This document shows positions 28,379-63,613 of a stretch of 64,000 bases of DNA, in pieces (position 1 is the first letter of the stretch; each line of letters opens with the position of its first letter). Position numbers and translations under genes: made by a program. The notes beneath the pieces were generated by a model. It had not been told where the DNA came from. It was given only the letters and a program-made list of their open reading frames with translations, and searched no databases. This DNA comes from Minisyncoccota bacterium (GTDB taxonomy: Bacteria > Patescibacteriota > Minisyncoccia > 2-02-FULL-40-12 > IGHO2-01-FULL-4-A), in the NCBI GenBank assembly GCA_040881175.1, contig JBBEDS010000014.1, positions 23,174 to 87,173 on the forward strand. The letters are read 5' to 3'.

Positions 28379-28600
28379 TAAGTATGTGTATATACCTGTG
28401 AAATTAATGGTTATAAATTATTGATAAAAATTGGATAAGTCTAATTCTAAAAAAAATAAGATAATATTAACAAGTTTATAACAAATTAATTAACATACTT
28501 ATCTACAGCTTACTAAATAACTTCTACCGCAAAAAATATAGTTACTAATAATCTTTTACCACTTATACACACCTCTTATTATTACTAATTAATTATATAT
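28379..28600. other. putative oriC: AT-rich (about 80% AT) dnaA-dnaN intergenic region with DnaA boxes TTATCTACA, TTATACACA, TGGATAAG
   Basis: seen in sequence: 222-nt AT-rich spacer with at least 3 near-consensus DnaA boxes between dnaA and dnaN. Confidence 0.5.
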
Positions 28601-29689
28601 ATGAATATAATAATAAATCAGAAAAGATTCTTAACAGCTCTGAGGGTTGTTGAAAAAGTTGTCTCAAAAAATACTTCTTTGCCAATTCTCAACACAGTAT
28701 TACTCAAAACGGATAACGGCAGTTTAAAACTTTCCGCTACGAATCTAGAAATCGGAATTAATTATTGGATTGGAGCCAAAGTAGAAAAAGATGGAGAGGT
28801 AGCTGTTCCAGCTAAAATATTCTCAGATTTCATAAGTAATATTTCAGACGAGAAAATTAAGGTAACCTCCAATAAAAATGTGGTGTCCATAAATTCCGAG
28901 CATTATAAAACTCAAATACTGGGAATGGACACAAAAGATTTTCCGATAATTCCCAAAATAAAAAAAGATAATTCTTTCAAAATAAATACGCAGGTACTAA
29001 AAAATTCTTTAGCTAATGTATTAGATTCAACTTCTCTTTCCGAAACAAGACCAGAGCTGAGTGGGGTATATGTTAATGCTTTAAGCAATAAAATTGAATT
29101 TGCTGCGACAGATAGTTTTCGTCTTTCTGAAAAATTAATTCCGCTAAAAGAAGGTATTAGCAAATCATTTATTATTCCGAGAAATACTGTAATAGAGATA
29201 ATAAGAACAGTTGAGAATATGGATGAAGATATTAATATATCCGTCTCTGAAAATCAGATTTTTGTTCACGGACAAGACTTTGAATTGATCTCTCGCTTAA
29301 TTGATGGCCGCTACCCGGAGTACAAAAAAGTTATTCCCGATAAATTTATCTCCCTAGTCAGATTAGAAAAGTCTGAGTTTGAAAAAAATATCAGGATGGC
29401 TAGTGTATTTTCTTCAAGTATATCCGACATAAAGCTTAAAGTTTCAAAAGATACTATGGAAATATCAGCCAAGAATAGCGATAGAGGAGAGATCACCTCA
29501 CACATGAGTTGTGATCTAAAAAGCAGCCCATTTGAGATATTAGTTAACTACCACTATCTTTTAGATGGACTAAAAACAATACCGACAGGAAATGTAATTA
29601 TGGAGTTTACTGGCGATGGGAGTCCTTTAGTTATAAAACCCGAAGAGAAAAAGGATCAAACTTACGTTATTATGCCTCTTAGGAATTAG
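28601..29689 (+). CDS. dnaN: DNA polymerase III beta sliding clamp
   Basis: 362 aa, three-domain clamp, typical N-term MNIIINQKRFLTALRVVEKVVS. Confidence 0.9.
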   Translation: MNIIINQKRFLTALRVVEKVVSKNTSLPILNTVLLKTDNGSLKLSATNLEIGINYWIGAKVEKDGEVAVPAKIFSDFISNISDEKIKVTSNKNVVSINSEHYKTQILGMDTKDFPIIPKIKKDNSFKINTQVLKNSLANVLDSTSLSETRPELSGVYVNALSNKIEFAATDSFRLSEKLIPLKEGISKSFIIPRNTVIEIIRTVENMDEDINISVSENQIFVHGQDFELISRLIDGRYPEYKKVIPDKFISLVRLEKSEFEKNIRMASVFSSSISDIKLKVSKDTMEISAKNSDRGEITSHMSCDLKSSPFEILVNYHYLLDGLKTIPTGNVIMEFTGDGSPLVIKPEEKKDQTYVIMPLRN

Positions 29690-29697
29690 TAACTACC

Positions 29698-29982
29698 GTG
29701 GAAGATTTAAAAAGGAAATTAACTCAACTTAAGAGGGTTATAGCTTCTAAGGAAGAAGAAGATAAAAAACTGAGGACAGAACTTAAAGAAATAATCGAGA
29801 AGCTTTTTGACCAAGTAAAAACCCCGATGGAATTTATTCGGGGTTTTTACTTACAGGGTGACAGGCTAGTCATAAACACTAATAATAAATCTTTCGCTAA
29901 TGAACTTTTCTTAGTTAAGAACCAGTTGTTAGAAGGCCTTTGGGATAGAAAATTCGTGGTGAAAGAATTGGTTATTAAGTAA
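29698..29982 (+). CDS. DUF721/DciA-like small protein
   Basis: FIRGFYLQGDRLVINTNNKSFANELFLVKNQLLEGL matches the DUF721 motif; located after dnaN as in many bacteria. Confidence 0.5.
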   Translation: MEDLKRKLTQLKRVIASKEEEDKKLRTELKEIIEKLFDQVKTPMEFIRGFYLQGDRLVINTNNKSFANELFLVKNQLLEGLWDRKFVVKELVIK

Positions 29983-29984
29983 GA

Positions 29985-32153
29985 CTAGTTTGAAGATTGA
30001 CCTGTGCCTAAGACCCATCTCTGCACAGACTCTTCCCAGTTCTTAGATTGAGAATCTTTCCCATGATTTTCAGGTATAGGCCCTGAAGGATTATCTTTAT
30101 TTACGTAATAGAGCAGAGAGTGTATTCCGTCAGGGCCATTGTAGTTACCATTTAGCATTACCTTATCAGCGAACACAGGATTTGGCTTTATGAACTGTTC
30201 TGATGGCGTGCCAGCAAGAGCTCTCGCAATAAACTCGTGCCACATAGGGCCTGCTGCTGATAAACCGGCTCCTTGCTGAGTCATTGAGTCATTATTATTG
30301 TTCCCCGTCCAGACTCCGACTGCAAGAGATGGGGTGTAGCCTATAAGCCAACCATCTCTGTTCTCCTGAGTGGTACCTGTCTTAGCGGCTACCTGACGGT
30401 CAGCGAAGTATAAAGAGCTGTTATAGCCGAATACAGGCCCTCTGGCGTTATTATCAGACAAGACATCGGACATCAAACGAGCCAGTTGAGCATCTAAGAC
30501 TCTTTCCTCCTGGACTTTGTTTTCTTCAAGAATGGTCCCGTCTCCAGTTACAACTTTCTGAATGAATGTCTGAGGTGTTCTTATCCCGTCATTTGCTAAA
30601 ACACCATAGGCGGCTACCATGTCTACAAGACGAACCTCTCCACCACCCAAGACTAGAGACAAGCCATATCTAGGCCGGTCATTAAGGGTGGTAATGCCCA
30701 TTTTATGGGCTAGATCGATAGTACCTTCTATACCAGCCAGGTAGAGAGTTTTAACGGAAGGGACGTTTAGTGATTGAGAAAGAGCCTGACGCATTGTTAC
30801 AGGGCCTCTGAAGCGGCCATCATAGTTTTGGGGATTATAGCAATCAAGACCAGAAGGATCCTTTGTTTGAGTAGCTGAAGAAGAACACTCGGGATTAAAT
30901 TCTGTTGGCAGATCGAAAAGTATAGTCGAATCGGCAAAACCTTTTTCGAAGGCTAGGGTATAAGCAAAAGGTTTAAATGACGAACCTGGCTGACGACTTG
31001 CTGTTGCAACGTTAAAATTACCCTCAAATTTACATGTCTTTCCTGGAATGCAGCCTTCGGGTTCCGCTTCACCAGAGTAATCTTTGGAACCGACCATAGC
31101 TAGAATATAGCCGGTCTTAGGGTCGGTCGCGACCAGAGCAGCATTATTAGCCTTATACCTTTCGGTATTAATCTCCGCGTACTTCTTTACGGTTTCTTCC
31201 GCTATCTTCTGTAGCTCCGAATCCAGGGTCGTGTAAACTCTAAGGCCACCATTCTGAACCATATCCTCGCCATACTTGTTCACCAGGTACTCTCTTACCA
31301 TGATGACGAAATGAGGAGCAGGAAAGCTGATCTCTGGAGTTGTTATTTCCGGAAATTCACTCACGGCCACGTCATGCTCCTCTTGAGTTATCGTGCCTAA
31401 GTTAAGCATTCTGCCTAAAATGAGATCTCTTCTATCAATCGCCCGCGAGAGGTTATTATTAGTACCATAAGGGGAGTAATAGCTTGGCGCATTAGGTAAA
31501 GCTGCTAAAAGTGTAGCCTCAGCTATATCCAGGTCCTTAGCGGGTTTATTAAAAAATGTTTGTGCAGCAGCTTCAATGCCGTAAGCATTGGAACCATAGG
31601 GTATTTGGTTCAAGTACATCCAAAATATTTCATCTTTGCTAAATTTACGTTCGATCTGAACCGAGAGGACAGCTTCCTTAACTTTTCTAGCGATTGTCTT
31701 CTCATCTCCAAGCAGAGATTTTTTAATCAGCTGCTGAGTTATCGTAGAGCCGCCCTGAGAGGCATCTAGGTTACGCAAGTCTTTGTATAATGCGCGGAGA
31801 ATGCCCCTAAAGTCTATGCCGCCATGGTTATAGAAATCGCTGTCTTCAGCAGCGAGAGTAGCATCTTTTACTGTCTGAGGTATCTGCTCCCAAGGGATGA
31901 TAGTTCTTTTTTCTTCGCCGTGGATGTCATAAAGAAGGGATTCTCTGGTGTTGTCATAAATTTTGGTAGACTCACTGACTCGGCGAGCGGCTATAGCTGA
32001 AGGATCAGGAACTTGGCGGGCGTAGTATAGAAAAATGACCACTAAAAAAACCAAGCCGGTTACGGCTAGCAATAATAGGGTAAGGAAGAAATTCTTTAAC
32101 TGGCTGGGTTTTTTCTTCTTTTTTGATCTTTGCATGTATGCTGATTTTGCCAT
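29985..32153 (-). CDS. class A penicillin-binding protein (PBP1A: GT51 glycosyltransferase + transpeptidase)
   Basis: EDSDFYNHGGIDFRGILRA (GT51), SSFKPF (SxxK), KTGT; start moved to internal Met (MAKSAYMQRSKKKKK...TM) because track start lies 15 nt from divergent tyrS and overlaps its promoter. Confidence 0.85.
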   Translation of the reverse strand: MAKSAYMQRSKKKKKPSQLKNFFLTLLLLAVTGLVFLVVIFLYYARQVPDPSAIAARRVSESTKIYDNTRESLLYDIHGEEKRTIIPWEQIPQTVKDATLAAEDSDFYNHGGIDFRGILRALYKDLRNLDASQGGSTITQQLIKKSLLGDEKTIARKVKEAVLSVQIERKFSKDEIFWMYLNQIPYGSNAYGIEAAAQTFFNKPAKDLDIAEATLLAALPNAPSYYSPYGTNNNLSRAIDRRDLILGRMLNLGTITQEEHDVAVSEFPEITTPEISFPAPHFVIMVREYLVNKYGEDMVQNGGLRVYTTLDSELQKIAEETVKKYAEINTERYKANNAALVATDPKTGYILAMVGSKDYSGEAEPEGCIPGKTCKFEGNFNVATASRQPGSSFKPFAYTLAFEKGFADSTILFDLPTEFNPECSSSATQTKDPSGLDCYNPQNYDGRFRGPVTMRQALSQSLNVPSVKTLYLAGIEGTIDLAHKMGITTLNDRPRYGLSLVLGGGEVRLVDMVAAYGVLANDGIRTPQTFIQKVVTGDGTILEENKVQEERVLDAQLARLMSDVLSDNNARGPVFGYNSSLYFADRQVAAKTGTTQENRDGWLIGYTPSLAVGVWTGNNNNDSMTQQGAGLSAAGPMWHEFIARALAGTPSEQFIKPNPVFADKVMLNGNYNGPDGIHSLLYYVNKDNPSGPIPENHGKDSQSKNWEESVQRWVLGTGQSSN

Positions 32154-46844: not shown

Positions 46845-49505
46845 TTAGCGCTGGGCAAAGTTGAATTTATCTTTATTTGAACGAAACTTTTTAACTACTG
46901 CCCATGCCTCACGTTGTCTGAATATTCCAGTTTTAGTATACCCCATATATACGAAGGTAACTAACGCACTAAGGAACAGTGAGAGCATTAAGCTGCCAGT
47001 TGTACCCGTAGATACACCAGCCACTCTGGCTATAGATGCGCCGGCTACTTGCGGGTTATTTGTCGTGGTAGATGTGCCAACATTGTTGGACACCGTTATG
47101 GGCATACTGGAGGTCGTCAGGGAGGAGTTGCTGGATCTTGCCTGAGCCACATTGGTAAATGTGGTCGTTCCAACAGGAAGCGCCGAGGATTGATTAACGG
47201 TTGCGTTAAGTTTTATGACAACCTCTTGGAATTGGAACAGGGAGCCTACGTTAAGACCGCCGCTATTAGTTATTCCGTCGGACCTTATGCTGCCGTTAAC
47301 ACTAGTTGTTCTGCTTATGTAGCTGAAACCTCCGGGCAAAAAGTCGTTAACTATTACATTATCAGCCCTTGTCGAGGAATTTGATCTAACCCTGATTACA
47401 AATTCAAGGGTGTCTCCGGGAGAGGCGGTTAAACTTGACTGCTCAACGTTGTCGCCTCGAGTAATATTTTTACCAAGTTTTTGAATAGATATCTGCGACA
47501 AAGGGTCATTGTTTGTGATTACGGTTGTTATGCTGTCTCGGGGTACATATACTATGGCCTGATCGGATACACTGGAGGTGTTAGATGAAGTGGCTCTAAA
47601 ATCTACGAAAGAGTTTGATCCGATAAAGTTTAAGAATAGCTGGTTGGGTACGGTAATTCTATACTTGATAGTCACGGAATTGCCAGGATTAATATTGCCC
47701 AAGTATATTCCTCCAGAAGATAAGATACTTCCAGAGTAAGACGATCCGTTTACAGTGGTGGAGTCATTAAAGTTTAGTCCGCTAGGCAAGAAGCTGGAAA
47801 CTCGTACGTCGGTCAAAGTAGAGTTGCCGCTTGTACCTAAGTAAGCAACCAGCTCCACGGTATCCCCAGGGAAAGCCTGTACTGTCTTGCTCTCGGAACC
47901 GCCACGACTCAAATTTCTGCCGTAGGCGTTTATATTCATAGACCTGAAGTCTCCAGTTGGAGTGGGTGTGGGATTTGGTGTCGGATTTGGTGTTGGATTC
48001 GGGGTAGGATTTGGAGTAGGTGTTGGTGACGGGTATATGCCAACTACAGTTGTATATGCTGAGACAACAAAGTTAACACAATTTCCATTGATGCACTTCG
48101 TGCCGGTCGCATTATTGGCCAGTATGGCTATTGGGGAAACGTCGTTGTTTATCCTGACCACGTATCTAAAGGTTTGAGGAGAGTTGGAATTTACAAATCT
48201 ATTTGACCAGGTGATTGTGTTTCCATTCACACTCCCGGAATTATTAAGGAAGTGGCTAAATGTCACGCCGTTCGGCAGTTGGTCTATGAGGTGGTTCAAC
48301 TCGAATGCATCCTGGTATCCTGGGACGGCAATCGTGTAGGTTATCTGATCTCCAACCAAAGCGACTGCTTTGTCGGCAGTTTTTGAGATACCACTAACAC
48401 TTACAACTGGTGTTGAGGTAGGGTTTGGAGTAGGGAATGGGGTCGGATTCGGTGTAGGGTAGGGTGTTGGGTTCGGGGTGGGTGATGAGCAATTTACGAC
48501 ATTGAAGTTTACCGTCTTGCTTATGTGGCCTATAGTAGCTGTTTTGGTCCAAGCACCAACGTCCGCTGATTTCCAAATGTATCCTTTGTCGCTCCAATAT
48601 CCGTTATTTACGAATTGGTTATAGCCAGACAACTTTTCTCCGGTAGAGCTTCCATTCCTAGTAGAAGACCAGAAGATCATCTTGCCGTTCAAGTCTGAGG
48701 ATGCATTGGAAACTGTATATGTAGATTGCGAACCAACGCAGACCGTCTGCGGATTAATCGAGAGATTAAATGAAGAGACCGTTGGTGTTGGTGTAGGAGT
48801 CGGGGTTGCTGCCGGCGGGCAGTATAGGTTAGAAGGCACGACTACCCAGACGTCATAGAGGTTTTTACTACCTCCATTTGAAATATCCCAAAGAGTAAAT
48901 CTGTAGTTCTTGCCACGATGCAACCAGGGCGTTTCGCCATCGCCGTTATTATGCAAAGCAAAAGTTTTTTCTATAAAAGTATCGGGGTCTCTGACAGTTA
49001 CCTTCGTCTTGTCTACATTTTGGGTGGTCCACTTGATAGTGGTATTGAACAAACATTGGCCAGGCAAGCGAGAGATGGAGCCGTCTTGCCAAATTTTACC
49101 GCTGGCGGAGGGAGAGGGGCAGACAATACTTTCAAGCTCAATCCAGGTATCGGAGAGCTTATCTTGCTTCCCATTCGAAACATCCCAGAGAGTAAAACGG
49201 TAGTTCTTACCAGGATGCAGCCATGGTGTTTCGCCTGTGCCATTGTTGTGCATGGCAAAAACCTTTTCTTGATTAGTGTCTGGATCTCTGACTGTGACCT
49301 TGGCTTGGTCTACATTCTGTGTGGACCAGCCTACTCTGCTGGTGTACAGACATTGATTCCCGATCTTCTCTACCAAGCTATCTTTCCATATTTGACCTGA
49401 GGGGGGTTGCGAGTTAGCAAAAACTGAACCGCCGAAAATGATTCCGGTGGTTATGACCGAGGTTACTAAGAATACTGCCAAAAAGATTCTTTTGTTCTTA
49501 TTCAT
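46845..49505 (-). CDS. large secreted surface protein (886 aa) with tandem about 95-aa N-terminal repeats, PT-rich linkers, DUF11-like repeat domains and C-terminal hydrophobic anchor
   Basis: Signal peptide; repeat unit WKDSLVEKIGNQCLY...VTVRDPDT..KVFAMHNNGTGETPWLHPGKNYRFTLWD present twice; (PTPN)n linkers; C-terminal GVSTGTTGSLMLSLFLSALVTFVYMGY + basic tail. Confidence 0.7.
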   Translation of the reverse strand: MNKNKRIFLAVFLVTSVITTGIIFGGSVFANSQPPSGQIWKDSLVEKIGNQCLYTSRVGWSTQNVDQAKVTVRDPDTNQEKVFAMHNNGTGETPWLHPGKNYRFTLWDVSNGKQDKLSDTWIELESIVCPSPSASGKIWQDGSISRLPGQCLFNTTIKWTTQNVDKTKVTVRDPDTFIEKTFALHNNGDGETPWLHRGKNYRFTLWDISNGGSKNLYDVWVVVPSNLYCPPAATPTPTPTPTVSSFNLSINPQTVCVGSQSTYTVSNASSDLNGKMIFWSSTRNGSSTGEKLSGYNQFVNNGYWSDKGYIWKSADVGAWTKTATIGHISKTVNFNVVNCSSPTPNPTPYPTPNPTPFPTPNPTSTPVVSVSGISKTADKAVALVGDQITYTIAVPGYQDAFELNHLIDQLPNGVTFSHFLNNSGSVNGNTITWSNRFVNSNSPQTFRYVVRINNDVSPIAILANNATGTKCINGNCVNFVVSAYTTVVGIYPSPTPTPNPTPNPTPNPTPNPTPTPTGDFRSMNINAYGRNLSRGGSESKTVQAFPGDTVELVAYLGTSGNSTLTDVRVSSFLPSGLNFNDSTTVNGSSYSGSILSSGGIYLGNINPGNSVTIKYRITVPNQLFLNFIGSNSFVDFRATSSNTSSVSDQAIVYVPRDSITTVITNNDPLSQISIQKLGKNITRGDNVEQSSLTASPGDTLEFVIRVRSNSSTRADNVIVNDFLPGGFSYISRTTSVNGSIRSDGITNSGGLNVGSLFQFQEVVIKLNATVNQSSALPVGTTTFTNVAQARSSNSSLTTSSMPITVSNNVGTSTTTNNPQVAGASIARVAGVSTGTTGSLMLSLFLSALVTFVYMGYTKTGIFRQREAWAVVKKFRSNKDKFNFAQR
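47955..48035. repeat. 12-nt periodic coding tandem repeat (GGATTTGGTGTC-like x about 6) encoding PNPT linker
   Basis: seen directly; second similar tract at 48421-48480. Confidence 0.6.
48840..49420. repeat. tandem about 290-nt intragenic duplication (about 80% identity) encoding the two N-terminal repeat domains of the surface protein
   Basis: protein-level duplication residues about 30-125 vs 130-222; corresponding DNA segments visibly similar. Confidence 0.5.
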
Positions 49506-54481: not shown

Positions 54482-54558
54482 TGGTGGGCGATGCAGGACT
54501 CGAACCTGCGGCCTTCTCGGTGTAAACGAGACGCTCTAGCCAACTGAGCTAATCGCCC
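54482..54558 (-). tRNA. tRNA-Val (anticodon TAC), CCA encoded
   Basis: Reverse strand GGGCGAT-TA-GCTCAGTTGGCTAGAGC-G-TCTCG-TTTACAC-CGAGA...GGTTCGAGTCC...ATCGCCC-A-CCA. Confidence 0.9.
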
Positions 54559-54570
54559 TATTAAGTTTCC

Positions 54571-54647
54571 TGGTGGGCGTGCCTGGACTCGAACCAGGGA
54601 CCCCGGACTTATAAGATCCGTGCTCTAACCAACTGAGCTACACGCCC
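54571..54647 (-). tRNA. tRNA-Ile2 (anticodon TAT, reads AUA), CCA encoded
   Basis: Reverse strand GGGCGTG-TA-GCTCAGTTGGTTAGAGC-A-CGGAT-CTTATAA-GTCCG-GGGTC-CCTGGTTCGAGTCCAGG-CACGCCC-A-CCA; positions 34-36 = TAT. Confidence 0.7.
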
Positions 54648-54696: not shown

Positions 54697-54721
54697 GAAA
54701 AAGTCGGCGCTTCAGCCGACT
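54697..54721 (-). terminator. rho-independent terminator (minus strand) after Cys-rich small gene
   Basis: minus-strand AGTCGGCTGAAGCGCCGACT + TTTTT. Confidence 0.55.
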
Positions 54722-55017
54722 TAGAATCCGAGATGTTTTTCAAGAGTTTTTACGGTCTCATTACCGGTCAGGCAAGAATCGCAGATTCCGCCCACGGGGG
54801 TTGATTCGCTGAGAGAAGATAAAGCTTCAGAGATCCACCCGAGTGTAGGCCTTATCCTGAATAGCTTGCCCCCAACCGTGCGGTGCTCGGAATAGGTGCT
54901 TAAGTCGCAGTTGTTGACATCTGGGACGTCGCCTTCAAACATTTTCTGAGTTCTCTCTTCGTTGATGAGGTTTTCACACAGGGCGCATTTATAGACTTTT
55001 CGTTGGAGATTCTCCAT
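54721..55017 (-). CDS. hypothetical Cys-containing small protein (98 aa; CALCEN...CDSCLTG zinc-ribbon-like)
   Basis: ORF track; followed by terminator. Confidence 0.4.
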   Translation of the reverse strand: MENLQRKVYKCALCENLINEERTQKMFEGDVPDVNNCDLSTYSEHRTVGGKLFRIRPTLGWISEALSSLSESTPVGGICDSCLTGNETVKTLEKHLGF

Positions 55018-55092: not shown

Positions 55093-56907
55093 CTATGTTA
55101 TTAAAGCGTAGAACTCTTTTTGCTCCAGAGTTTCCTTGGAGATAAGCTCTTTGGCAATTTTGTCCAGAGTTTTTACTTTTTTGCCCAGAATCTCTTTGGC
55201 TTTTTTCATTGCTCTTGAAAGCAAGCCATGAATCTCGCTGTCTATCTTAAATGCGATCTCGTTGGAATAATTTTTATCTGAGCCTATCTCTTTGCCCAAG
55301 AAAACCAGTTCTTCTTTTTCACCAAATACAACTGGGCCGAGTTTGTCGGACATTCCATATTGAGTGACCATCTTGCGAGCCAGGTCCGAGGCAACCTTCA
55401 GGTCGTTGGATGCTCCGGTAGTCAGTTCTTTGAATACCAGACGTTCAGCTGTATAACCGCCGAGAAGTACGGCCAGCTCAGCTTCGAACTCTGACTTTGA
55501 GCGTAAGTGCTTGTCTTCCGTAGGTAATTTAAGGGTGTATCCACCAGCGCGTCCGCGCGATACTATGGAGACTTTGTGGACCGGATCTGTATGTGGCATA
55601 GAGACAGCGACAAGGGCATGACCAGCTTCGTGATATGCAGCTATCTTTTTCTCTTCTTTAGAGAAGGCATGAGAGCGTCTTTCCGGACCCAGCATTACTT
55701 TCTCTAAGGCTTCTAGTAGGTTGTCTTGATTTATCTGCTTCTGATTTTTCCTAGCAGCAAGTATAGCCGCTTCGTTTATTAAATTAGCCAAGTCAGCACC
55801 AGAAAACCCTGGGGTTCTCTCGGCAACTAGTCGCATATTAACCTCTTTCATCAGGGGCTTGTCTGTAGCATGTATTCTCAATATGGCCTCTCTATCTTTC
55901 ATTGATGGCTCATCTAGTATTATCCGTCTGTCGAAGCGTCCCGGTCTAAGAAGAGCGGGGTCCAATATATCCGGACGGTTGGTTGCCGCCATGACAATTA
56001 TTGCATCGTTGGTGGCGAAGCCGTCCATCTCAACCAATATTTGGTTAAGTGTCTGTTCTCTCTCATCGTGTCCGCCGCCAAGACCCGCTCCGCGGTGGCG
56101 ACCGACTGCATCAATCTCATCAACAAAGATTATTGAAGGCGCGGTTTTCTTGGCGACCTCAAATGTATCTCTGACTCGGTTGGCACCGACTCCGACGAAC
56201 ATCTCTACGAATTCGGAACCCGAGACGAAGTAGAATGGGACGTTAGCCTCATTAGCCACTGCTTTGGCTAGCAGTGTCTTACCTGTGCCGGGGGAGCCTA
56301 TCAGAAGAATGCCTCGAGGAATTCGGGCTCCCAGTTTCTGGAATCTCTTAGGATCGCGGAGGAATTCCACGACCTCAGATATTTCTTCCTTAGCTTCGGT
56401 TAAACCGGCAACATCTTTGAAAGTAAGCTTTTTTTTGCCGTTACCGTCGGCCAGCTTAGCTCTTGATTTACCGAAAGTGAAGGCCTGCATTGATCCTCGC
56501 TGTGCTTGGCGGAACATGAACCAGAACAGGAATATGATTAGCAGAAATGGCAGAAGGAAAGGCAAAAAGTTGGCCAGGTAAAATCCAAAGCCCGATTCAT
56601 CCTGTATATCTAGGTTAACTTCTTTTAATCTTTCTTGCTCGACTCCGAGGTTGACCAGGGTCTCGCTAACTGAAGTTCCTGGTTCTCTCTTTGATTCTTC
56701 CTTCTCATCGTTTTTTAACGTGATCTCCAGCTTTTCTCCGCGTACAACGACCTCTTTAACCTCAGATTGATTGATCTGGTTAACTAGGGTTGTGAGTGAG
56801 ACCTCATTTGGTGTTTCGCCAAACGGTGAGTTAAACAGGGCGACGAAACCAGACAAAACCAGAAGTATTAAAAAGACTATTAGAATATATTTTGCGAGTG
56901 ATTTCAT
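55093..56907 (-). CDS. ftsH: ATP-dependent zinc metalloprotease FtsH
   Basis: N-terminal TM pair, AAA+ [17 protein letters not shown] zinc-binding motif. Confidence 0.95.
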
Positions 56908-56951
56908 GGAGCTAAATTAACATAAAAAATGTGGTGCGACAATATTTAGGT

Positions 56952-57000
56952 AAAAAAAGTGCCCCGACTCAAATCACTTGCGTGACTATATTGTCGGGGC
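56952..57000 (-). terminator. rho-independent terminator (minus strand) between SHOCT-domain gene and ftsH
   Basis: inverted repeat GCCCCGAC...GTCGGGGC (8 bp) with T-run on minus strand (plus A-run 56952-56958). Confidence 0.5.
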
Positions 57001-57047: not shown

Positions 57048-58445
57048 TTAGGAGAGTAGGGCCTTCATCTCCTTGTAGTCGGCGGCATCGATCTCACCCT
57101 TCGCGAAGCGTCGGGCGAGCGCCTTGAGCTCTTCGTTGCCGGAAGTCGCCTGGCCTTCGGTGGCCGGCGCCGCAACCTCTTCGTGCTCTTTGGCGACGCC
57201 ATTGGCGTGACCGTTGGGTTGGACTTCAGCCAGTTTCGGCTGCTCGCTTTCAGCGGCTTGCTTTCGCTCCGCCTCGGCTCGCAGATGATCGGCCCTTTCC
57301 CGCTTGTTCTTCGCCTTGGTCGCGAACGACTGTGCACCGGAATAGTTCTTCGCGGCGACAGCTTCCGTTTCTTTGGCATCAAGCTCGGCCGCTTCGGCCT
57401 CGAGAGACTCCGGCGTTTCCGCCGGGATCACCTTGACCTCCAGCCCGCGCTCCTTCAGAGAAGTAGGAGACTCTTGGCCGTCCTCGTCCTCAATGGAAGC
57501 GCTGGTGGTTACCTTCAGCGGCTCTGCGTTCGCTTCTTCGGCAATGATAGCCTTCTGGGCTTCCGCCAGCTCAGTTTCGAGCTTGTCGGCATCGACTCTG
57601 AGGCGTTTGGCCATCTTCTGGCAGCTACCAGCCTTTTCGTAGTCGCCGGCTGCGGCGGCTGTGTCGGCGTCGGCCTGTTTCTGCTCGGCTTCTGCGCGCA
57701 GGCTTTCGGGAGTGTCCTGCTCTTCTTGCTCTTCGGGTTCCGAAAAGGCCATATTGGCCTCGTCGTCGACCTCTTCTCCGGCTTTGCGCCGTTGCTGATT
57801 CCTGGTAATTCGGTCGATGGTGTCTTGCACCAGTGCGACGTCGGCCAGGATGTGGTTGTAGTCCTTACTCGCTTCGCTTTGATCTGCGAGCCTCTTGAGG
57901 AAGTCGTCGCCTTCCATGTCGGCTTCGGTTTTGATCGTTTGCTTGTACTCAATGTCACCCAAAGCTTCGTTGGCGGCAGCCACCATCTTGAGTCGACCGT
58001 CGAGGTCGGGACGCAGGCCAGCCCGATTCGTGAACCTTACCAGGCGGATCCAGGCTGAGAAGAAGGGAGCGTTCCAGGGGAACAGCGCCCACATGACGTT
58101 CTCGGCGAAGTCCTTCACACCACCGGTCTTGGCGGGGAAGTACATGCCTTTGAGCAGTCCAAAGTTCTGGACGTGCCGGAGGTACTTCTGCTGAAGCTGA
58201 CGGTCGAGGGTTCTGACCTCTTTCCGCAATCCTTCCAGCTCTTTCAGACCTTCCGGAGAGAGCTGACGGTCGTCGCCCTGCTCGTTCGTGATTTTCCAGG
58301 CCTTCCGAATGAGAGAAGCAAGGACTTTGTCTTCCACCATCGGAACTTTGCTTCCGCGGGTGAAATTCTGGCTCCTCTCACCACTGGCGACCTGAGGTTT
58401 GTCTGAGCCGTCTTCATGACGGCGTCGAACGTTCTTATTGGCCAT
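57048..58445 (-). CDS. hypothetical protein (465 aa) with N-terminal unknown domain, Ala/Glu-rich coiled-coil linker and C-terminal SHOCT-like motif; 60-65% GC
   Basis: C-terminus LKALARRFAKGEIDAADYKEMKALLS resembles SHOCT; strong GC skew relative to neighbours; all six frames open (GC artefact ORFs). Confidence 0.55.
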   Translation of the reverse strand: MANKNVRRRHEDGSDKPQVASGERSQNFTRGSKVPMVEDKVLASLIRKAWKITNEQGDDRQLSPEGLKELEGLRKEVRTLDRQLQQKYLRHVQNFGLLKGMYFPAKTGGVKDFAENVMWALFPWNAPFFSAWIRLVRFTNRAGLRPDLDGRLKMVAAANEALGDIEYKQTIKTEADMEGDDFLKRLADQSEASKDYNHILADVALVQDTIDRITRNQQRRKAGEEVDDEANMAFSEPEEQEEQDTPESLRAEAEQKQADADTAAAAGDYEKAGSCQKMAKRLRVDADKLETELAEAQKAIIAEEANAEPLKVTTSASIEDEDGQESPTSLKERGLEVKVIPAETPESLEAEAAELDAKETEAVAAKNYSGAQSFATKAKNKRERADHLRAEAERKQAAESEQPKLAEVQPNGHANGVAKEHEEVAAPATEGQATSGNEELKALARRFAKGEIDAADYKEMKALLS

Positions 58446-58684
58446 TTCTTGGCCCTCCTGTTGTCAAAGATTAGTACAGCGAAAATGCTCTCGAGAGCGC
58501 ATTCTCGCCATCCGGTATTAATATATCAGATGGCTTGACTAATGTCAATAACATAAGTATAGTATTGGAAAGTTAGGAAATAGGCCTTTTAAAATTAATT
58601 GCTACAAGACGGGCCTACTATTAATACATAGCCGACCTATTTTGTAGCAATTTTTAATATCAAAATATGCAGAGGAGGAATTAG

Positions 58685-60070
58685 ATGGTTAAGGTAACCA
58701 CTTTAGGCGGAAGCTCGGGTTTGAGAAGTATCGGCCCCAGCTGTTACGTGGTCGACATTGATGACAAAAGGATCATTGTCGATTGCGGTATTGAGCCAAC
58801 ATTACGGGGGTTCATTCCTCCGAATCTCGACTATCTGAGAGACGGCAAACTGATTGATGCGGTCTGCCTAACACACGGACACGTAGACCATATCGCTTAC
58901 ACTCCAGCCCTTATCCCTTTCATGAAGCCGGATGCGAAAGTATTCATGACTCCACAGACGGCTCAAACGTCATCGTACGTCATTGAAGAACAATTCAAAT
59001 TCGGCATCAGGGTCAAAGACCTTCCGTTCAGTATGCTCGACATGTTCGAGTTCGTTCAAGAAAGGATTTCGATTATTGAGAGGCCGGGGGTTATTGAAAT
59101 TCTGGATGGAATCAGCGCCTACGCCCATCCGGTCGGACATATTCCCGGAGCATGCGGTTTCATCTTCAAACTGCCTGATGGCCGCAAGATGATGATCTCT
59201 GGAGACATGAGCTGGCACAACCAGCCGACAGTCCTCGGTTATCAGCCCATGCCCGATGAGTGGAAGCCCGAAATTCTTGCAGGAATTGATCTGACCGGCG
59301 TAACGGTTGAGAAAAATCCGTCCTGGGAGCTTGAGGCTGACAGGATGGGCAGGGATGTCAGAGAGGTCATGGAAAATGGCGGCTCTGTAGCGATCGCAGC
59401 TTTTGCCAATAACAAGAGCCAATGCGTAGTGTCAGCTCTTCATCAAAGAGGGGTCACCTCATACATGGAGGAAGGATCTGCTGCTACCATTGCTCGCATT
59501 CTGAGTAGGAACAAATGGTCTGACAACGATGTTCTCTTTGACCTCGGTCAGCTTAAAATGATTGAGGACTTCCATCACCGGCGCTATCTAATGGGCCAGA
59601 AAGAGCCGAAAGTGGTAACTTCGCCTTCAGGCATGTGCATAGGCGGCCACATCAGAGAGTGGCTTGAGGTGATCCTGCCGGATCCCAACGCTGCTCTATT
59701 CTTTGCTGGATTTGTCGCCGAAGACAGCAACGGCGGGCGAATTATCAACGCCAAGGAACAAGGCAAAGAAGAGGTCACCCTTGTAGACAACAACGGCTTT
59801 GGCGGTGAAATGGAAACTTTGCCGCTCAGGTGCAGGATAGGGAAGTACAAGCTGACCTCTCATGGCGATGGTCAGAGCATCTTCAACTGGATCGAGCAGA
59901 TCGATCCGCAGATAATTAACCTGACCCACGGGACTCCGGCCGGTAAACTCTATGCGGCCTCGAGACTCCTCAAGAGGAACAGAAAGATCTTTATGAACGT
60001 CGGTCGCCACAAGGTGAGAACGACGAGGGAAATTAATATCAAAGTCCAGCAGTTTGCTCTGCAAACTTAG
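58685..60070 (+). CDS. metallo-beta-lactamase-fold protein, beta-CASP-like (putative nucleic-acid hydrolase)
   Basis: HGHVDH (HxHxDH) motif, further His/Asp ligands, 461 aa; GGAGG SD before ATG. Confidence 0.7.
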   Translation: MVKVTTLGGSSGLRSIGPSCYVVDIDDKRIIVDCGIEPTLRGFIPPNLDYLRDGKLIDAVCLTHGHVDHIAYTPALIPFMKPDAKVFMTPQTAQTSSYVIEEQFKFGIRVKDLPFSMLDMFEFVQERISIIERPGVIEILDGISAYAHPVGHIPGACGFIFKLPDGRKMMISGDMSWHNQPTVLGYQPMPDEWKPEILAGIDLTGVTVEKNPSWELEADRMGRDVREVMENGGSVAIAAFANNKSQCVVSALHQRGVTSYMEEGSAATIARILSRNKWSDNDVLFDLGQLKMIEDFHHRRYLMGQKEPKVVTSPSGMCIGGHIREWLEVILPDPNAALFFAGFVAEDSNGGRIINAKEQGKEEVTLVDNNGFGGEMETLPLRCRIGKYKLTSHGDGQSIFNWIEQIDPQIINLTHGTPAGKLYAASRLLKRNRKIFMNVGRHKVRTTREINIKVQQFALQT

Positions 60071-60079
60071 GGAAAATAA

Positions 60080-60109
60080 AGGACGGCACTAAGTGCCGTC
60101 CGTTTTTTT
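60080..60109. terminator. bidirectional rho-independent terminator
   Basis: AAAGGACGGCACTAAGTGCCGTCCGTTTTTTT. Confidence 0.75.
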
Positions 60110-60848
60110 ATTGATAAATAGGTGATAGGTCTTCAAGCAGAGATTCAATCGCTCTTTTCTCCGATGGGGAGACGAGGGCGTCCTCCGCTTCTAAAATATC
60201 GAGTTCTTCTTGAGACAGAGTTCTGAACTTTTCCACCAAGTCATCTCTGCCCATGTCCTGAAAGACTCGGAGTATGCCCTGATGGGAAGAATAGTGCCAT
60301 GGAGCTTCTTCGAGTATTTCTATGGCAAGCGGTTCCTTCTTGAGCAATAACAGAATTGCGATAATCCTAGCAAAAGAGCTGTGATATATCACTGGTACTG
60401 TTTCTCGCGTCAGAGGATCCTTTTTCCTGAATGGAAGCTTCCTCAAGTAGAACCAGCGGCAGTCTATGATCAACGGGTCAGATGTCTCGAAAGGATAGGG
60501 GCTGACCCCTCTGCCGTCTGCGAAGAATGTGTGAACCCCATAGCGTGATTCAGGATCCGGTTTTTCGAAGAAGACGACTTCATCATTTATCTTAATCTCT
60601 AAACCACGGACTTCCTCAAAGAACTCTCTTTCGGCCGTGGCCTGGGCAGGCTCTTCGAGATTGTTCTCATCCTGCATGCCTCCTGGCAGGCCCCAGCCGT
60701 GACCTTGAACGAATTCATTGCCGTCTTCCTTGTGGACTATCGAAGCCCGATGCTCAACTAAGACTACCTTCTCCTCACCGGCTTGGTGTAGGTCTATGGC
60801 AGCAACAAACGCGGAATGATGGATTGGGTTTCCTGATCCCATGGTCAT
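60108..60848 (-). CDS. Nudix hydrolase with about 100-aa C-terminal extension
   Basis: Nudix box GWGLPGGMQDENNLEEPAQATAEREFFEEVRG; start set at Met overlapping upstream stop (ATGA) instead of the GC-driven upstream extension. Confidence 0.65.
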   Translation of the reverse strand: MTMGSGNPIHHSAFVAAIDLHQAGEEKVVLVEHRASIVHKEDGNEFVQGHGWGLPGGMQDENNLEEPAQATAEREFFEEVRGLEIKINDEVVFFEKPDPESRYGVHTFFADGRGVSPYPFETSDPLIIDCRWFYLRKLPFRKKDPLTRETVPVIYHSSFARIIAILLLLKKEPLAIEILEEAPWHYSSHQGILRVFQDMGRDDLVEKFRTLSQEELDILEAEDALVSPSEKRAIESLLEDLSPIYQ

Positions 60849-61690
60849 CCACCCGCAGCTACTGGAATGGCAGAACGGACGCCGAGCACTCTTTGTCGCT
60901 CTTGGCTGTCGTTGAGAAGTCCTTCGAATTCGATTATGTCGCCGGCTTCTTTCATCGGAAAGTCTTCGCAGTCGAGGATCTGCCGCCAATGAAGGAAGGC
61001 AGGACCTTGAGCTGTTTGGACGAATCCCCACATGTTGCTCAGATTAAAGAAGATCACACGGCCAATGTTGCCGGATAATTCAAAGCCGTTCTTAGTTGCG
61101 ACAGTCTCTCCGGCGAATTTATCAAGAGTCTGGACATCCACCATCTCTTCAAGAAGATTATGAAGGTCAGACCAAGTACTGTAACCGGGGAATTCATTTT
61201 CCGATACATGTATCCGCCCATCCTTTCGATACATATTTGCGGAGTATGTCTTCTGGATCACCAGATGGTAGTTTGCCCGTTCTCCCATGATCAGGGTGAC
61301 GATTGAGATTTCCCAGAGCTCGAAGGTTCTGTCTTTGATGACCACAACCCTCAAGTTGTGGTTTTTCGGTTTCGTAGAATACGATTCCTCCATCGCGGAG
61401 ACAACCTCTTCCGTCGGGATCGTGCGCCGGTAGCTTGCGATATCGCTTTCCGGGGTCTCGTCTTTCTTGCTCGAGATCTTCTTGCTTTTTCCTTGAACGA
61501 CGATGACTCGAACACTATGCAGGCGAGGAGTGCGAACTTCCAGCTTGAAGTTCAGCTTTTCATCTCGAGGAAGCCAGAAGAAGAATCCATCATCTTCAGG
61601 ATTCAGCTTTCTGTCGAGGCCAGCTAAGTAAATCCCAACTTCTACGCCTCTGGCTGCCAGCTCATTAGATTCCGTTTGGTGGCTGTACAT
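60845..61690 (-). CDS. hypothetical protein with C-terminal cold-shock-like (CSD/OB) domain
   Basis: C-terminus GNIGRVIFFNLSNMWGFVQTAQGPAFLHWRQI...KEAGDIIEFEGLL fits CSD pattern (G-V-FN-GFGFI...VF-H...G..V-F); N-terminal about 200 aa unassigned. Confidence 0.5.
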   Translation of the reverse strand: MYSHQTESNELAARGVEVGIYLAGLDRKLNPEDDGFFFWLPRDEKLNFKLEVRTPRLHSVRVIVVQGKSKKISSKKDETPESDIASYRRTIPTEEVVSAMEESYSTKPKNHNLRVVVIKDRTFELWEISIVTLIMGERANYHLVIQKTYSANMYRKDGRIHVSENEFPGYSTWSDLHNLLEEMVDVQTLDKFAGETVATKNGFELSGNIGRVIFFNLSNMWGFVQTAQGPAFLHWRQILDCEDFPMKEAGDIIEFEGLLNDSQERQRVLGVRSAIPVAAGG

Positions 61691-61860
61691 AGGGTTATCC
61701 CTCCTGTTGTATTTTCCTATTTACCTCATTGTTAATGGACTTTTGCCTATGAAAACTGGGGTTATAATAAAGTAATTATTGGTTTTGGTCAAGTTATGCT
61801 GACTTGACTTATAGGTAATTTATGTGGTATATTATTATGATAAGGAGGTTTTTAAAAACC

Positions 61861-62310
61861 ATGAAGAGTTTTACGGAAGTTCTTGAGCCGCCCACAGGTG
61901 GTTTCCTGAGTCTGCCCAAAGGCAAGGGTAGGCGACGCAGAAGTAGCGGTGGTCCCAATCGGTCCCCCCGTGTCCAAAAAAGCAGGGAGGACATTCGGGC
62001 CGAAGAAGCTGCGATGGCGGCCAGAAGCGTAATGCTGCCAATCGTGGTGGCGCGGGAGCTGGTGGCCGAGTACATGCCGTTGGCCGCCGTGCTTCTGCAG
62101 GAGCTGCACCGCCTCAATGAGCTGGAGAAGCTCGGAGCGGTGCTCGATCCGTTGCTGGACATTTCCGAGGAAGACAAGGAGGCGCTCATTCCGATGTGCT
62201 TCTGCCACATGATCGAGCTTGGGTTCGAGCAAGTGGAGAAGATGGTCGACGAAGGCAGGTGGGCTGCCGAGATCGAAAAGCAACTCCCCGTCTTCCGATC
62301 CACTCTTTAG
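61861..62310 (+). CDS. hypothetical protein (150 aa), GC-rich
   Basis: AAGGAGG SD 11 nt upstream of ATG 61861; possible promoter TTGACT-N18-TATATT at about 61805-61835. Confidence 0.4.
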   Translation: MKSFTEVLEPPTGGFLSLPKGKGRRRRSSGGPNRSPRVQKSREDIRAEEAAMAARSVMLPIVVARELVAEYMPLAAVLLQELHRLNELEKLGAVLDPLLDISEEDKEALIPMCFCHMIELGFEQVEKMVDEGRWAAEIEKQLPVFRSTL

Positions 62311-62344
62311 CAGCTTTGACTGCGATTCTCTCCTCCTCCACACA

Positions 62345-62380
62345 GCCCGGGCGCGCAATATCGCCCGGGCCTCTTTTTTT
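62345..62380 (+). terminator. rho-independent terminator after 61861 gene
   Basis: GCCCGGGCG-CGCAATAT-CGCCCGGGC + CTCTTTTTTT. Confidence 0.65.
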
Positions 62381-62391
62381 ACTTTTAATAA

Positions 62392-62437: not shown

Positions 62438-63613
62438 TTATTCGGTTTTTTCTTTCTGAAGAGTGAGTATCATCTTGTGTTCCTTCGAGTCGATTGATAC
62501 GATCGCTACCTTTATTTTATCTTCAAGTTTGAAATCTTCTCCCGGTTTCTTGTCTCCCAGTTCTGATACTGGGATAAGGCCGGTTATCTCTTCATCCAAT
62601 TTTACCAGCATTCCATAATTGGTCATTTTGGCAACCTCTCCTTCTACTTCCTGGCCGACGGAATATTTCTCTTCTATCTTTTGCCATGGGTCTTCCTTGA
62701 GTGCTTTAAGAGATAGAGAAATTTTACTACCATCGATATCTATGATCTTAGCTTTTACAATCTGACCGCTCTTTAGCACATCATGCGGACTTTCTATTAG
62801 CTTCCAATCTATTTCAGAAATATGTATCAACCCTTCTATTCTGGTTGAAGTCTGTCCTTCTGACACTCCCTTCTCGTCAGTAGCAGGGGGGTTAATAAGG
62901 GCAAAAGCACCGAAGTCCGTTACGTCTGTTATCTCAGCTTCGACGACATCTCCGATTGTGAATTTAGAGATCTCCTCTTTGATTTGCTCGTCATTGATAG
63001 CCTTTTCCGAAACAATCAGCTTGTTCTCGCTTTCAGAGAAATCAAGAATTTTAACTTTGATATCCTGATTACGGAATTTTTGTAGAGCCTGGACTATCTT
63101 TGTAGTGTCTCCACCATCTATTTTGGGGTAGTTCTCCGGCAGTAGCTGAGATAGAGGTAAGAATCCTTGGATCCCATTTATCTCAACCAGAAGGCCTCCT
63201 TTGTTTATGTTAACAACTTTGGTCTCTATGACTTCGCCGCTTTCTTTCTTGTTCCTAATATCCTGCCAGGCGGTGGTCATCTGGGCTCTCTTTAGAGACA
63301 GCTCGCGGTAACCGTCATCATTCTCTATCTCAAGCAAGATAGCCGAAACTTTTTGTCCGGCTTTCAAAGCTTTCTGTAAATTCGGGTTGTCATAGAACTC
63401 GCCGGGATAAACCGCGCCAGTTCCCAAGGAGCCCAGGTCGATCAAGACCGCATTTTTTCCGATACTAATAATTTCGCCGGTAAGAACCTGTCCGACCTTG
63501 GGCAGATCAAACTCGGCTTTTGCAAGAAGATCTTTCATCGAAAGATCAGAGTTTTCTAGTTGAATAGCATTTTCCATGTGGCGAAGCATAACACCTTTCT
63601 TTATATCTGGCAA
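62438..63613 (-). CDS. rpsA: 30S ribosomal protein S1 (short form, four S1 domains)
   Basis: Repeated S1 OB-fold motifs (GQVLTGEIISI, GEVIETKVVNI, GDVVEAEITDV, GQIVKAKIIDI). Confidence 0.85.
   Translation of the reverse strand: MPDIKKGVMLRHMENAIQLENSDLSMKDLLAKAEFDLPKVGQVLTGEIISIGKNAVLIDLGSLGTGAVYPGEFYDNPNLQKALKAGQKVSAILLEIENDDGYRELSLKRAQMTTAWQDIRNKKESGEVIETKVVNINKGGLLVEINGIQGFLPLSQLLPENYPKIDGGDTTKIVQALQKFRNQDIKVKILDFSESENKLIVSEKAINDEQIKEEISKFTIGDVVEAEITDVTDFGAFALINPPATDEKGVSEGQTSTRIEGLIHISEIDWKLIESPHDVLKSGQIVKAKIIDIDGSKISLSLKALKEDPWQKIEEKYSVGQEVEGEVAKMTNYGMLVKLDEEITGLIPVSELGDKKPGEDFKLEDKIKVAIVSIDSKEHKMILTLQKEKTE

Follow-up and report, generated by a model that had tools for sequence, protein, structure and literature searches.

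Five genes between ftsH and rpsA in a bacterium of the candidate phyla radiation (CPR)/Patescibacteria depart sharply in base composition from their surroundings, which raises the question of whether they are imported DNA or a resident system with a cellular function. The block occupies positions 57048-62390 of the 64,000-nucleotide stretch that was analyzed (contig JBBEDS010000014.1 of the Minisyncoccota assembly GCA_040881175.1; called the window here), and its genes are labeled A to E (Table 1). A preliminary description had proposed a horizontally acquired module with a role in defense or nucleotide signaling. Comparison with relatives points elsewhere: the block appears to be a lineage-conserved chromosomal neighborhood of a CPR/Patescibacteria subgroup, anchored between ftsH and rpsA. 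On balance, we favor reading its core as a module for 5'-end-dependent RNA decay or processing. The genomes of CPR/Patescibacteria are tiny, and little has been characterised of how these organisms turn over RNA; the locus offers a testable candidate for such decay.

The domain assignments of the preliminary description were confirmed, the SHOCT-like tail of gene A only as a candidate whose score falls below the Pfam cut-off. Gene B, described as a metallo-beta-lactamase (MBL)/beta-CASP protein, exceeds the Pfam gathering cut-offs (GA) for Lactamase_B (46.3 bits, GA 22.7), Beta-Casp (40.5 bits, GA 27.7) and RMMBL (26.0 bits, GA 21.6). Across 10 aligned sequences its motifs D33, H64xH66xD68H69, H152, D174, H393 and H415 do not vary, and an acidic residue precedes an invariant T204. 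The best matches in the PDB are aCPSF1 (E-value 3.6e-24), Cas14 (1.9e-23; 8yhd), CPSF73 (1.5e-21), TTHA0252 (3e-16) and RNase J (4.5e-8). These comparisons place B nearest to the CPSF73/aCPSF branch among the beta-CASP RNases and make it a predicted ribonuclease. It scores 125.8 bits against the aCPSF1/FttA equivalog TIGR03675 (cut-off 580), over model positions 175-424 alone and with no N-terminal extension. Against the RNase J models TIGR00649 and NF047419 it scores 28.5 and 31.9 bits (cut-offs 400 and 820), through the N-terminal 100 residues only. A canonical RNase J with an RNase_J_C domain sits elsewhere in a distant relative, L013 (loci of relatives carry L numbers). Only four close clusters of B are found among 5.8 billion proteins, and the identical protein is also present in an independent read-level assembly. 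Beyond the window clade, the nearest homologues are archaeal aCPSF2-like proteins, 24-27% identical. The next-nearest B homologue (33% identical, 506 aa; L006 241-3317) adjoins a TruD-type pseudouridine synthase, not a Nudix gene and D; its 282-aa neighbor was rejected as a member of the D family (hhalign probability 0.2).

Gene C is a Nudix hydrolase, as had been described: its NUDIX match reaches 32.5 bits (GA 21.1), and the tail of about 100 aa is present. The REFFEE element of the Nudix box is intact in the window clade, RE..EE is retained in L007, L008 and L011, and the residues are kept in 7/8 homologues overall. The models of the RNA pyrophosphohydrolases RppH and YtkD are among the weak best matches of the relatives' Nudix proteins.

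Gene D represents a family for which we found no description in the literature searched, characterized by an unmatched N-terminal domain, a cold-shock domain (CSD) and a tie to a Nudix protein. An exhaustive profile search retrieved 113 clusters among 1.84 billion representatives, with lengths of 260-300 aa and full-length matches, and none of the 113 carries an annotation. A narrower family alignment retrieved two genome loci and one metagenome locus. The N-terminal region (about 200 aa) was compared with the PDB and BFVD fold libraries and has no match in Pfam or the PDB. The AlphaFold2 model from a 51-sequence alignment is confident (predicted local distance difference test, pLDDT, 94.9; predicted template-modeling score, pTM, 0.91). 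In this model the last 70 residues fold as a cold-shock domain, with a Foldseek template-modeling score of 0.85 on the target (Bacillus cold-shock proteins) and a family-profile match to the PDB at 3e-12. The Pfam CSD model is reached by 20 of 51 family members, window D itself staying below significance. The domain has the five-stranded oligonucleotide-binding (OB) barrel and RNP1/RNP2-like aromatic residues of PF00313. The cold-shock-like OB fold proposed for the C-terminus is hence confirmed by predicted structure and family profile. The aromatic positions FFN, WGF and FLHW presumably correspond to those through which cold-shock proteins such as CspA bind RNA.

The pairing of C and D is evident from their arrangement. 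The two genes overlap by ATGA, the ATG start of C lying over the TGA stop of D (...GGTGGATGACCATG...), as had been noted. L007 and L008 carry Nudix and D in the reverse order, and in L017 (= L011) a single polypeptide of 651 aa (P0087/P0170) joins an S21-like domain, Nudix and D. The Nudix protein of L007 bears a ribosomal protein S21 domain above the cut-offs of both Pfam (44.6 against 27 bits) and TIGR00030 (49.8 against 28.95 bits). The domain is borderline in L008 (28.7 against 28.95 bits) and weak in L017. We found no description of S21-Nudix fusions in the literature searched. The window clade, in which C has its C-terminal tail instead, either lost the S21 domain or never had one. Coupled, adjacent in both orders, fused once and accompanied by the beta-CASP nuclease, D and the Nudix protein bear out the functional link suggested earlier; these arrangements strongly support joint action of the nuclease, the Nudix enzyme and the CSD protein.

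This association extends over considerable divergence. Relatives were recovered by searching with the block genes, and lineages without the block fall outside the sample. All five genes, with order and orientation unchanged between ftsH and rpsA, recur in L002/L003/L010 (B 84% identical; scaffolds of 733 kb and 112 kb), L005 (64%) and L004 (60%). In L008 the order is rpsA, S21-like-Nudix, D, a GC-rich gene of 345 aa, beta-CASP, a GC-rich gene of 108 aa and ftsH. In L017 it is rpsA, a 53-aa gene, the S21-like-Nudix-D fusion, a GC-rich gene of 398 aa, beta-CASP and ftsH. L012 mirrors the window architecture: X(-), D(+), Nudix-like(+), beta-CASP(-), X(+). A D-family gene adjoins rpsA at eight distinct loci: the window, L002/L010, L004, L007, L008, L011/L017, L013 and L014. 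Window FtsH is 91% identical to that of L002 and 70-71% to those of L008/L017, while S1 is 61-64% identical to L008/L017 and 37% to L013; these values indicate that the rpsA...ftsH module has a long history in this part of the CPR.

From these components a sequence of events can be proposed. The Nudix enzyme C would act with D as its obligate partner, presumably in a physical complex, and the cold-shock domain of D would hold single-stranded RNA. Together, C and D would act on RNA whose 5' end carries a triphosphate or a nucleotide cap and leave a 5'-monophosphate. The CPSF/aCPSF2-like enzyme B would then degrade or trim the resulting RNAs as a 5'-to-3' exonuclease, an endonuclease or both. 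Gene A, divergent from B, and possibly gene E would be clade-specific, fast-evolving accessories, of which A may scaffold or regulate B. That C and D produce 5'-monophosphate RNA and B degrades it is suggested by the intact Nudix tied to a CSD protein, the co-located nuclease, the adjacent rpsA, whose product S1 binds mRNA, S21 in relatives, and precedents. RppH and RNase J in Bacillus follow the same logic of a Nudix enzyme and then a beta-CASP nuclease. The archaeal enzyme aCPSF2 is a 5'-to-3' exoribonuclease on 5'-monophosphate RNA (PMC3792030), and in Sulfolobus a Nudix protein was proposed to generate such RNA for degradation by aCPSF2 (PMC10663502).

Several observations weigh against this proposal. 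The linkage has exceptions: L013 has D beside rpsA with neither a Nudix gene nor a CPSF-type beta-CASP gene, and in L009 and L015/L016 D is located elsewhere. The proteins of the module change far more rapidly than those encoded beside it, the beta-CASP proteins being only 23-28% identical between lineages with 70-79% FtsH identity, which is unusual for core housekeeping functions. An insertion read from the alignment alters the G-x5-E spacing of the Nudix box in C, and the Nudix protein of L012 has lost catalytic residues. No NCBIfam model matches gene C at E <= 0.1 and no curated Nudix subfamily fits. The relatives' Nudix proteins score 16-26 bits against RppH/YtkD cut-offs of 116-259, RppH falling far short; the enzyme may therefore work like RppH rather than be RppH. 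Neither Pfam nor the alignment reveals an S21 domain in window C. Nudix enzymes act on many substrates other than RNA, and beta-CASP enzymes include DNA nucleases; B and its relatives weakly match a ligase-associated DNA-damage exonuclease model (E 1.6e-5 to 4e-12, far below cut-off). Nor does the proposal account for the high GC content maintained in the accessory genes, described below.

A ribosome-associated module is an unlikely but substantive alternative. Here the Nudix-D pair would work on 30S subunits, and the beta-CASP enzyme would take rRNA or ribosome-bound mRNA as its target, to mature or to survey it, for instance in maturing the 5' end of 16S rRNA or in checking the quality of translation initiation. 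The S21-Nudix fusions (above cut-offs in L007, borderline in L008, weak in L017) and the eight rpsA-linked D loci argue for it, as does the maturation of the 16S rRNA 5' end in Bacillus by a beta-CASP enzyme of the RNase J type. However, S21 is absent from the Nudix protein of the window clade, and adjacency to rpsA may be merely historical. This alternative also overlaps largely with RNA decay: the chemistry would be shared, and the two are set apart by the substrate and the place of action. A narrower version, which we regard as doubtful, would make the Nudix-D pair a ribosome-tethered device of this CPR lineage for processing RNA 5' ends. Protein bS21 neighbors bS1 on the platform of the 30S subunit, at the site from which the 5' part of an mRNA emerges. 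Translation initiation would then be coupled to decapping or to the removal of pyrophosphate, with the beta-CASP enzyme as the downstream nuclease. The confidently predicted N-terminal domain of D (~200 aa) would be a new fold that recognizes the RNA 5' end or the ribosome.

A role in DNA repair or nucleotide sanitation is improbable. It would require an SNM1/Artemis-like beta-CASP DNA nuclease, a MutT-like Nudix enzyme and a CSD protein binding single-stranded DNA. Cold-shock domains do bind single-stranded DNA too, MutT models are among the weak Nudix matches of the L017 fusion, and the exonuclease matches of B noted above are of this kind. In addition, the helical region of A contains two TPESL(R/E)AEA repeats, which may resemble UVR motifs; a Pfam scan of A at E <= 0.1 gave no UVR match, and the UVR-domain reading was rejected. 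On the other side, RMMBL is above cut-off and the best full-length matches of B are CPSF/aCPSF RNases, the S21 fusion and rpsA linkage indicate RNA, and the locus lacks a ligase or other repair gene.

The remaining explanation, horizontal acquisition, was suggested by base composition. Sliding-window GC, GC content at third codon positions (GC3) and tetranucleotide analysis all confirm that the block is atypical. GC content is 51.7% in the block against 43.1% in the remaining window (43.8% for the whole window). In 200-nt windows it rises from 0.385-0.465 at the ftsH end to 0.60-0.645 within gene A and returns to ~0.42 in rpsA, in agreement with the sharp step at the ftsH/A border and the drop before rpsA that had been reported. 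The 53 window genes outside the block, with a GC3 of 0.435 +/- 0.043 and a maximum of 0.545, served as reference. Relative to these the rise is uneven: A and E are extreme, B and D moderate, and C barely atypical. The segment 57001-58500 is the top tetranucleotide outlier of the entire window (z 5.7). Of the figures given in the preliminary description, 50-65% GC over a background of about 40%, the upper range of 55-65% is reached by A and E alone, and the background is slightly higher than claimed. Its count of 39/60 at 57061-57120 is in fact 38/60, and its 24/60 for ftsH is one value in a range of 23-31/60 among ftsH 60-mers. A low-GC outlier lies at 28001-30000 of the window, directly after dnaA, and comprises dnaN and the following small open reading frame (ORF; GC 0.32-0.34, GC3 0.29, tetranucleotide z 3.3-3.4).

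The relatives show that this composition is not recent. The preliminary description had named syntenic orthologues of similar GC content in relatives as evidence for an ancestral block, and these were found: all relatives recovered carry orthologous genes at the ftsH-rpsA locus, and GC3 is equally elevated in L002/L003/L010, L004 and L005. Across orthologues GC3 is 0.69-0.72 for A (four lineages) and 0.61-0.68 for E, compared with backgrounds of 0.41-0.54. Fourfold sites are only 21-42% identical between the window and L004/L005, and are thus saturated. Under host mutation bias, a foreign gene loses its GC3 signature over much synonymous change (amelioration). The GC3 of A stays at 0.69-0.72 in four lineages although fourfold sites are just 33-42% identical, and it is 0.70-0.72 in the saturated comparison with L004/L005; the high GC3 is therefore upheld at the locus rather than left over from an import. 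Atypical composition thus appears to be a maintained property of the accessory genes, weaker in B and D.

Synonymous divergence is itself uneven along the locus. Between the window and L002, differences at fourfold sites amount to 0.5-0.7 in rluD, ftsH and rpsA, drop at the ftsH/A border to 0.20-0.28 over A, the A/B spacer and the 5' part of B, and are 0.26-0.48 in the remaining block. The low-divergence tract corresponds to window 57048-58950 and L002 8344-10270. Both the high GC3 and the low synonymous divergence (dS) would follow either from more frequent recombination here, accompanied by GC-biased gene conversion, or from selection acting on synonymous sites. Gene A has long ORFs in all six frames, which the preliminary description considered artefacts. 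Synonymous-codon shuffles of four orthologues reproduce their lengths with no consistent excess; because the lengths match those predicted from the amino-acid sequence and codon usage of A, the ORFs are indeed artefactual. Overlapping or antisense genes as a source of these ORFs and of the low dS were ruled out by the same shuffles.

Other signatures of an acquired island or a defense system were sought. No integrase or transposase was found among the window ORFs, no direct repeats flank the block, the repeats present being short and at chance level, and no tRNA lies at its borders, the nearest being beyond ftsH and syntenic in relatives. Every relative that was recovered through block genes carries the block in this position, so that no presence/absence polymorphism was seen. 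No foreign donor was found either, A having no homologues beyond its clade. Of the features that characterize an acquired island, the block has the atypical composition, and lacks mobility signatures and a polymorphism or donor. PADLOC-DB 2.0 returned no match for A, C, D or E, and for B only LmuA (E 2.4e-5), Avs1a (1.7e-3) and PDC-M48B (0.012-0.018), mostly around the N-terminal MBL region. Homologues of D and A were absent from a phage collection, and homologues of D from plasmids and IMG/VR. The least probable reading is that of a horizontally acquired island serving in defense or nucleotide signaling (nuclease effector, Nudix, nucleic-acid sensor): it accords with the atypical base usage of A and E (z about 6) and, to a lesser degree, of B and D, with narrow distribution (B in 4 close clusters, A in 2-3, D in 113), with very fast protein divergence at a fixed locus whose accessory genes vary and are non-homologous, with the weak PADLOC matches and with a low-divergence tract that could mean exchange between lineages, but it is weakened by the same locus and core genes in lineages with 70% FtsH identity, by GC3 kept at saturated synonymous sites, by the absence of mobility genes, att-like repeats, border tRNAs and mobile-element homologues, by PADLOC matches that are partial and confined to MBL-fold components, and by the ribosomal domain fused to Nudix in relatives.

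The accessory genes A and E evolve fast. Between the window and L002, A is 75% identical and FtsH 91%, with ratios of nonsynonymous to synonymous divergence (dN/dS) of 0.30 and 0.03. Together with its codon-position pattern (0.153/0.131/0.275), this ratio supports A as a coding gene. Its SHOCT match (PF09851) covers residues 438-464 and the full 28-residue model, at E 1.5e-4 and 21.9 bits against the Pfam cut-off of 27; by eye, the tails of the orthologues are also SHOCT-like. No match to A was found among PDB sequences. Its orthologues, in 2-3 close clusters, are restricted to close relatives, and A thus appears specific to the window clade. It may be a partner, scaffold or regulator of the beta-CASP enzyme B. 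The hypothetical protein listed earlier with 150 aa is gene E, with 149 aa on the + strand. Its start was chosen from the promoter, a GGAGG ribosome-binding site and the + strand gene calls of relatives. It is 44% identical to its L002 counterpart (dN/dS 0.50) and had no family match in domain, curated-family or PADLOC scans. In each lineage a GC-rich gene (GC3 0.62-0.72) adjoins the beta-CASP gene, and yet no homology was detectable among A and the accessory proteins of L012 (318 aa), L017 (398 aa) and L008 (345 aa).

Promoter pairs in the A/B and D/E spacers, together with terminator-like hairpins after A, between B and C, and after E, divide the block into four transcription units (A, B, D-C and E). 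The strong terminators said to bracket the block are represented by hairpins with T-runs after E and, by eye, after A; these are ordinary gene terminators. In four orthologous spacers the A/B promoters keep identical hexamers. The A leader contains a perfect DNA palindrome, GAGAATGCxCTCGAGxGCATTCTC, which begins a few nucleotides past the predicted transcription start and closely follows the -10 box of A (58520-58525). This element could equally be an operator or a 5'-terminal stem-loop. Stem-loops at the 5' terminus protect bacterial mRNAs against decay that depends on the 5' end. Given this protection and the conserved leader hairpins of A and B, autoregulation is conceivable.

Table 1. Genes, flanking anchors and predicted signals of the ftsH-rpsA locus, with related genes in other lineages. 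Positions refer to the window unless an L number is given; z is the deviation of GC3 from the 53 reference genes.
Feature	Position	Strand	GC	GC3	z	Description
ftsH	55093..56907	-				604-aa ORF; FtsH_ext/AAA/Peptidase_M41 on the identical L001 gene; left anchor, outside the module
Hairpin after A	~56950..57000	-				CCCCGAC...GTCGGGG then CACTTTTTTTAC (T7); read by eye; long loop, hence unlisted in the scan
Gene A	57048..58445	-	0.589	0.697	6.2	465 aa; conserved N-terminal region, acidic Ala/Glu-rich helical region, SHOCT-like C-terminal tail
Conserved palindrome/hairpin at the 5' end of the A transcript	58477..58510	-				13 predicted pairs, 3 compensatory, four orthologous spacers
Overlapping divergent sigma-70-like promoters of A (-) and B (+)	58520..58563					TTGACA-17-TATATT 11/12 (-); TTGACT-17-TATAGT 10/12 (+)
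Conserved hairpin in the 5' untranslated region of B	58597..58652	+				inverted repeat; 18 predicted pairs, 9 compensatory double changes, four sequences
Gene B	58685..60070	+	0.505	0.589	3.6	461 aa; predicted beta-CASP MBL ribonuclease of CPSF73/aCPSF type, without KH or other extra domains
Bidirectional terminator between convergent B and C	60081..60101					9-bp stem (7 GC pairs), T-runs on both strands
Gene C	60108..60848	-	0.484	0.510	1.8	246 aa; NUDIX at residues 17-147, then ~100-aa C-terminal helical tail
Gene D	60845..61690	-	0.493	0.557	2.9	281 aa; beta-rich ~200-aa N-terminal region and C-terminal cold-shock domain (about 205-275)
Divergent sigma-70-like promoters of the D-C operon (-) and E (+)	61764..61833					TTGACC-17-TATTAT 10/12 (-); TTGACT-18-TATATT 10/12 (+)
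Gene E	61861..62310	+	0.589	0.713	6.5	149 aa; fast-evolving hypothetical, GC-rich, basic N-terminus (KGKGRRRR)
Terminator after E	62345..62370	+				9 GC pairs then T7
rpsA (ribosomal protein S1)	62438..63613	-				S1 domains 148.6 bits; right anchor of the locus
GC-rich hypothetical genes beside beta-CASP	L008 3330-4367 and 6234-6560; L012 143-1027 and 4631-5587; L017 3953-5149			0.62-0.69
S21-Nudix fusions	L007 834-1574; L008 1523-2299; L017 1839-3794 (= L011 1836-3791)					all directly downstream of rpsA

The flanks of the locus contain further features of interest. A pair of tRNA genes, tRNA-Val(TAC) and tRNA-Ile(TAT), lies at 54482-54647 of the window and is kept beyond ftsH in L002, L008 and L017. 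Genome-encoded tRNA-Ile with a UAU anticodon is uncommon among bacteria. An Rfam search of the block gave no match except the flanking tRNAs. Between the tRNA pair and ftsH is an ORF of 98 aa (54721-55017, - strand) that is Cys-rich (CxxC...CxxC) and has no family match; L002, the 84% relative, lacks it and has just 72 bp at that place. Farther upstream, at 46845-49505 (- strand), is a protein of 886 aa of DUF11/MG10 type with Gly/Val-rich tandem repeats at 47956-48483, which we take to be a putative surface protein from its domains and hydrophobic N-terminus. A (GV)n-rich ORF in L002 (80-421) adjoins a CLIPPER/bMG10-type gene at the edge of that locus.

Compared with known systems, the locus resembles most closely the pairing of a Nudix protein with a beta-CASP ribonuclease in RppH/RNase J (Bacillus) and Saci_NudT5/aCPSF2 (Sulfolobus). 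B shares the size and the MBL/beta-CASP/RMMBL make-up, without KH domains, of aCPSF2/TTHA0252-type enzymes. In contrast to both pairs, the two genes are kept here in one locus. In addition, the Nudix protein has a proposed obligate partner in D, whose CSD is joined to the unmatched N-terminal domain, and is combined with S21 in relatives, unlike in the RppH and NudT5 systems. It also stays below every RppH model cut-off, and the identity of B to archaeal aCPSF2-like proteins is as low as stated above. The eukaryotic decapping pathway of Dcp2-Dcp1 and Xrn1 follows a similar logic, with a Nudix enzyme, an RNA-engaging partner and an exonuclease on 5'-monophosphate ends; this is a likeness of working, not of membership. 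D has no relation in sequence or fold to Dcp1, its PDB neighbors being just OB folds, and the putative exonuclease is a beta-CASP protein rather than Xrn1. D likewise differs from CspA/CspB, Lin28 and Unr in its extra N-terminal region of ~200 aa.

Two further comparisons are instructive. The MBL and beta-CASP core of B aligns with that of Cas14 from type VII CRISPR-Cas (89 bits against the NCBIfam model; 8yhd in the PDB), but this score is far under the cut-off of 800, the C-terminal region of Cas14 is absent from B, no CRISPR array was found in the window and the locus has no cas5 or cas7. With genomic and defense islands the block shares atypical GC content and codon usage, lineage-restricted genes and variable accessories at a fixed site. 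It differs from them in a core that is syntenic over deep divergence, in lacking mobility machinery, and in a composition left unameliorated despite synonymous saturation. A sharp GC3 anomaly that resembles horizontal transfer is here a stable property of syntenic genes. Overall, we lean toward a system that follows a known principle, 5'-end decay primed by a Nudix enzyme and executed by a beta-CASP nuclease, in which the undescribed partner family and the S21 fusions would be the new part.

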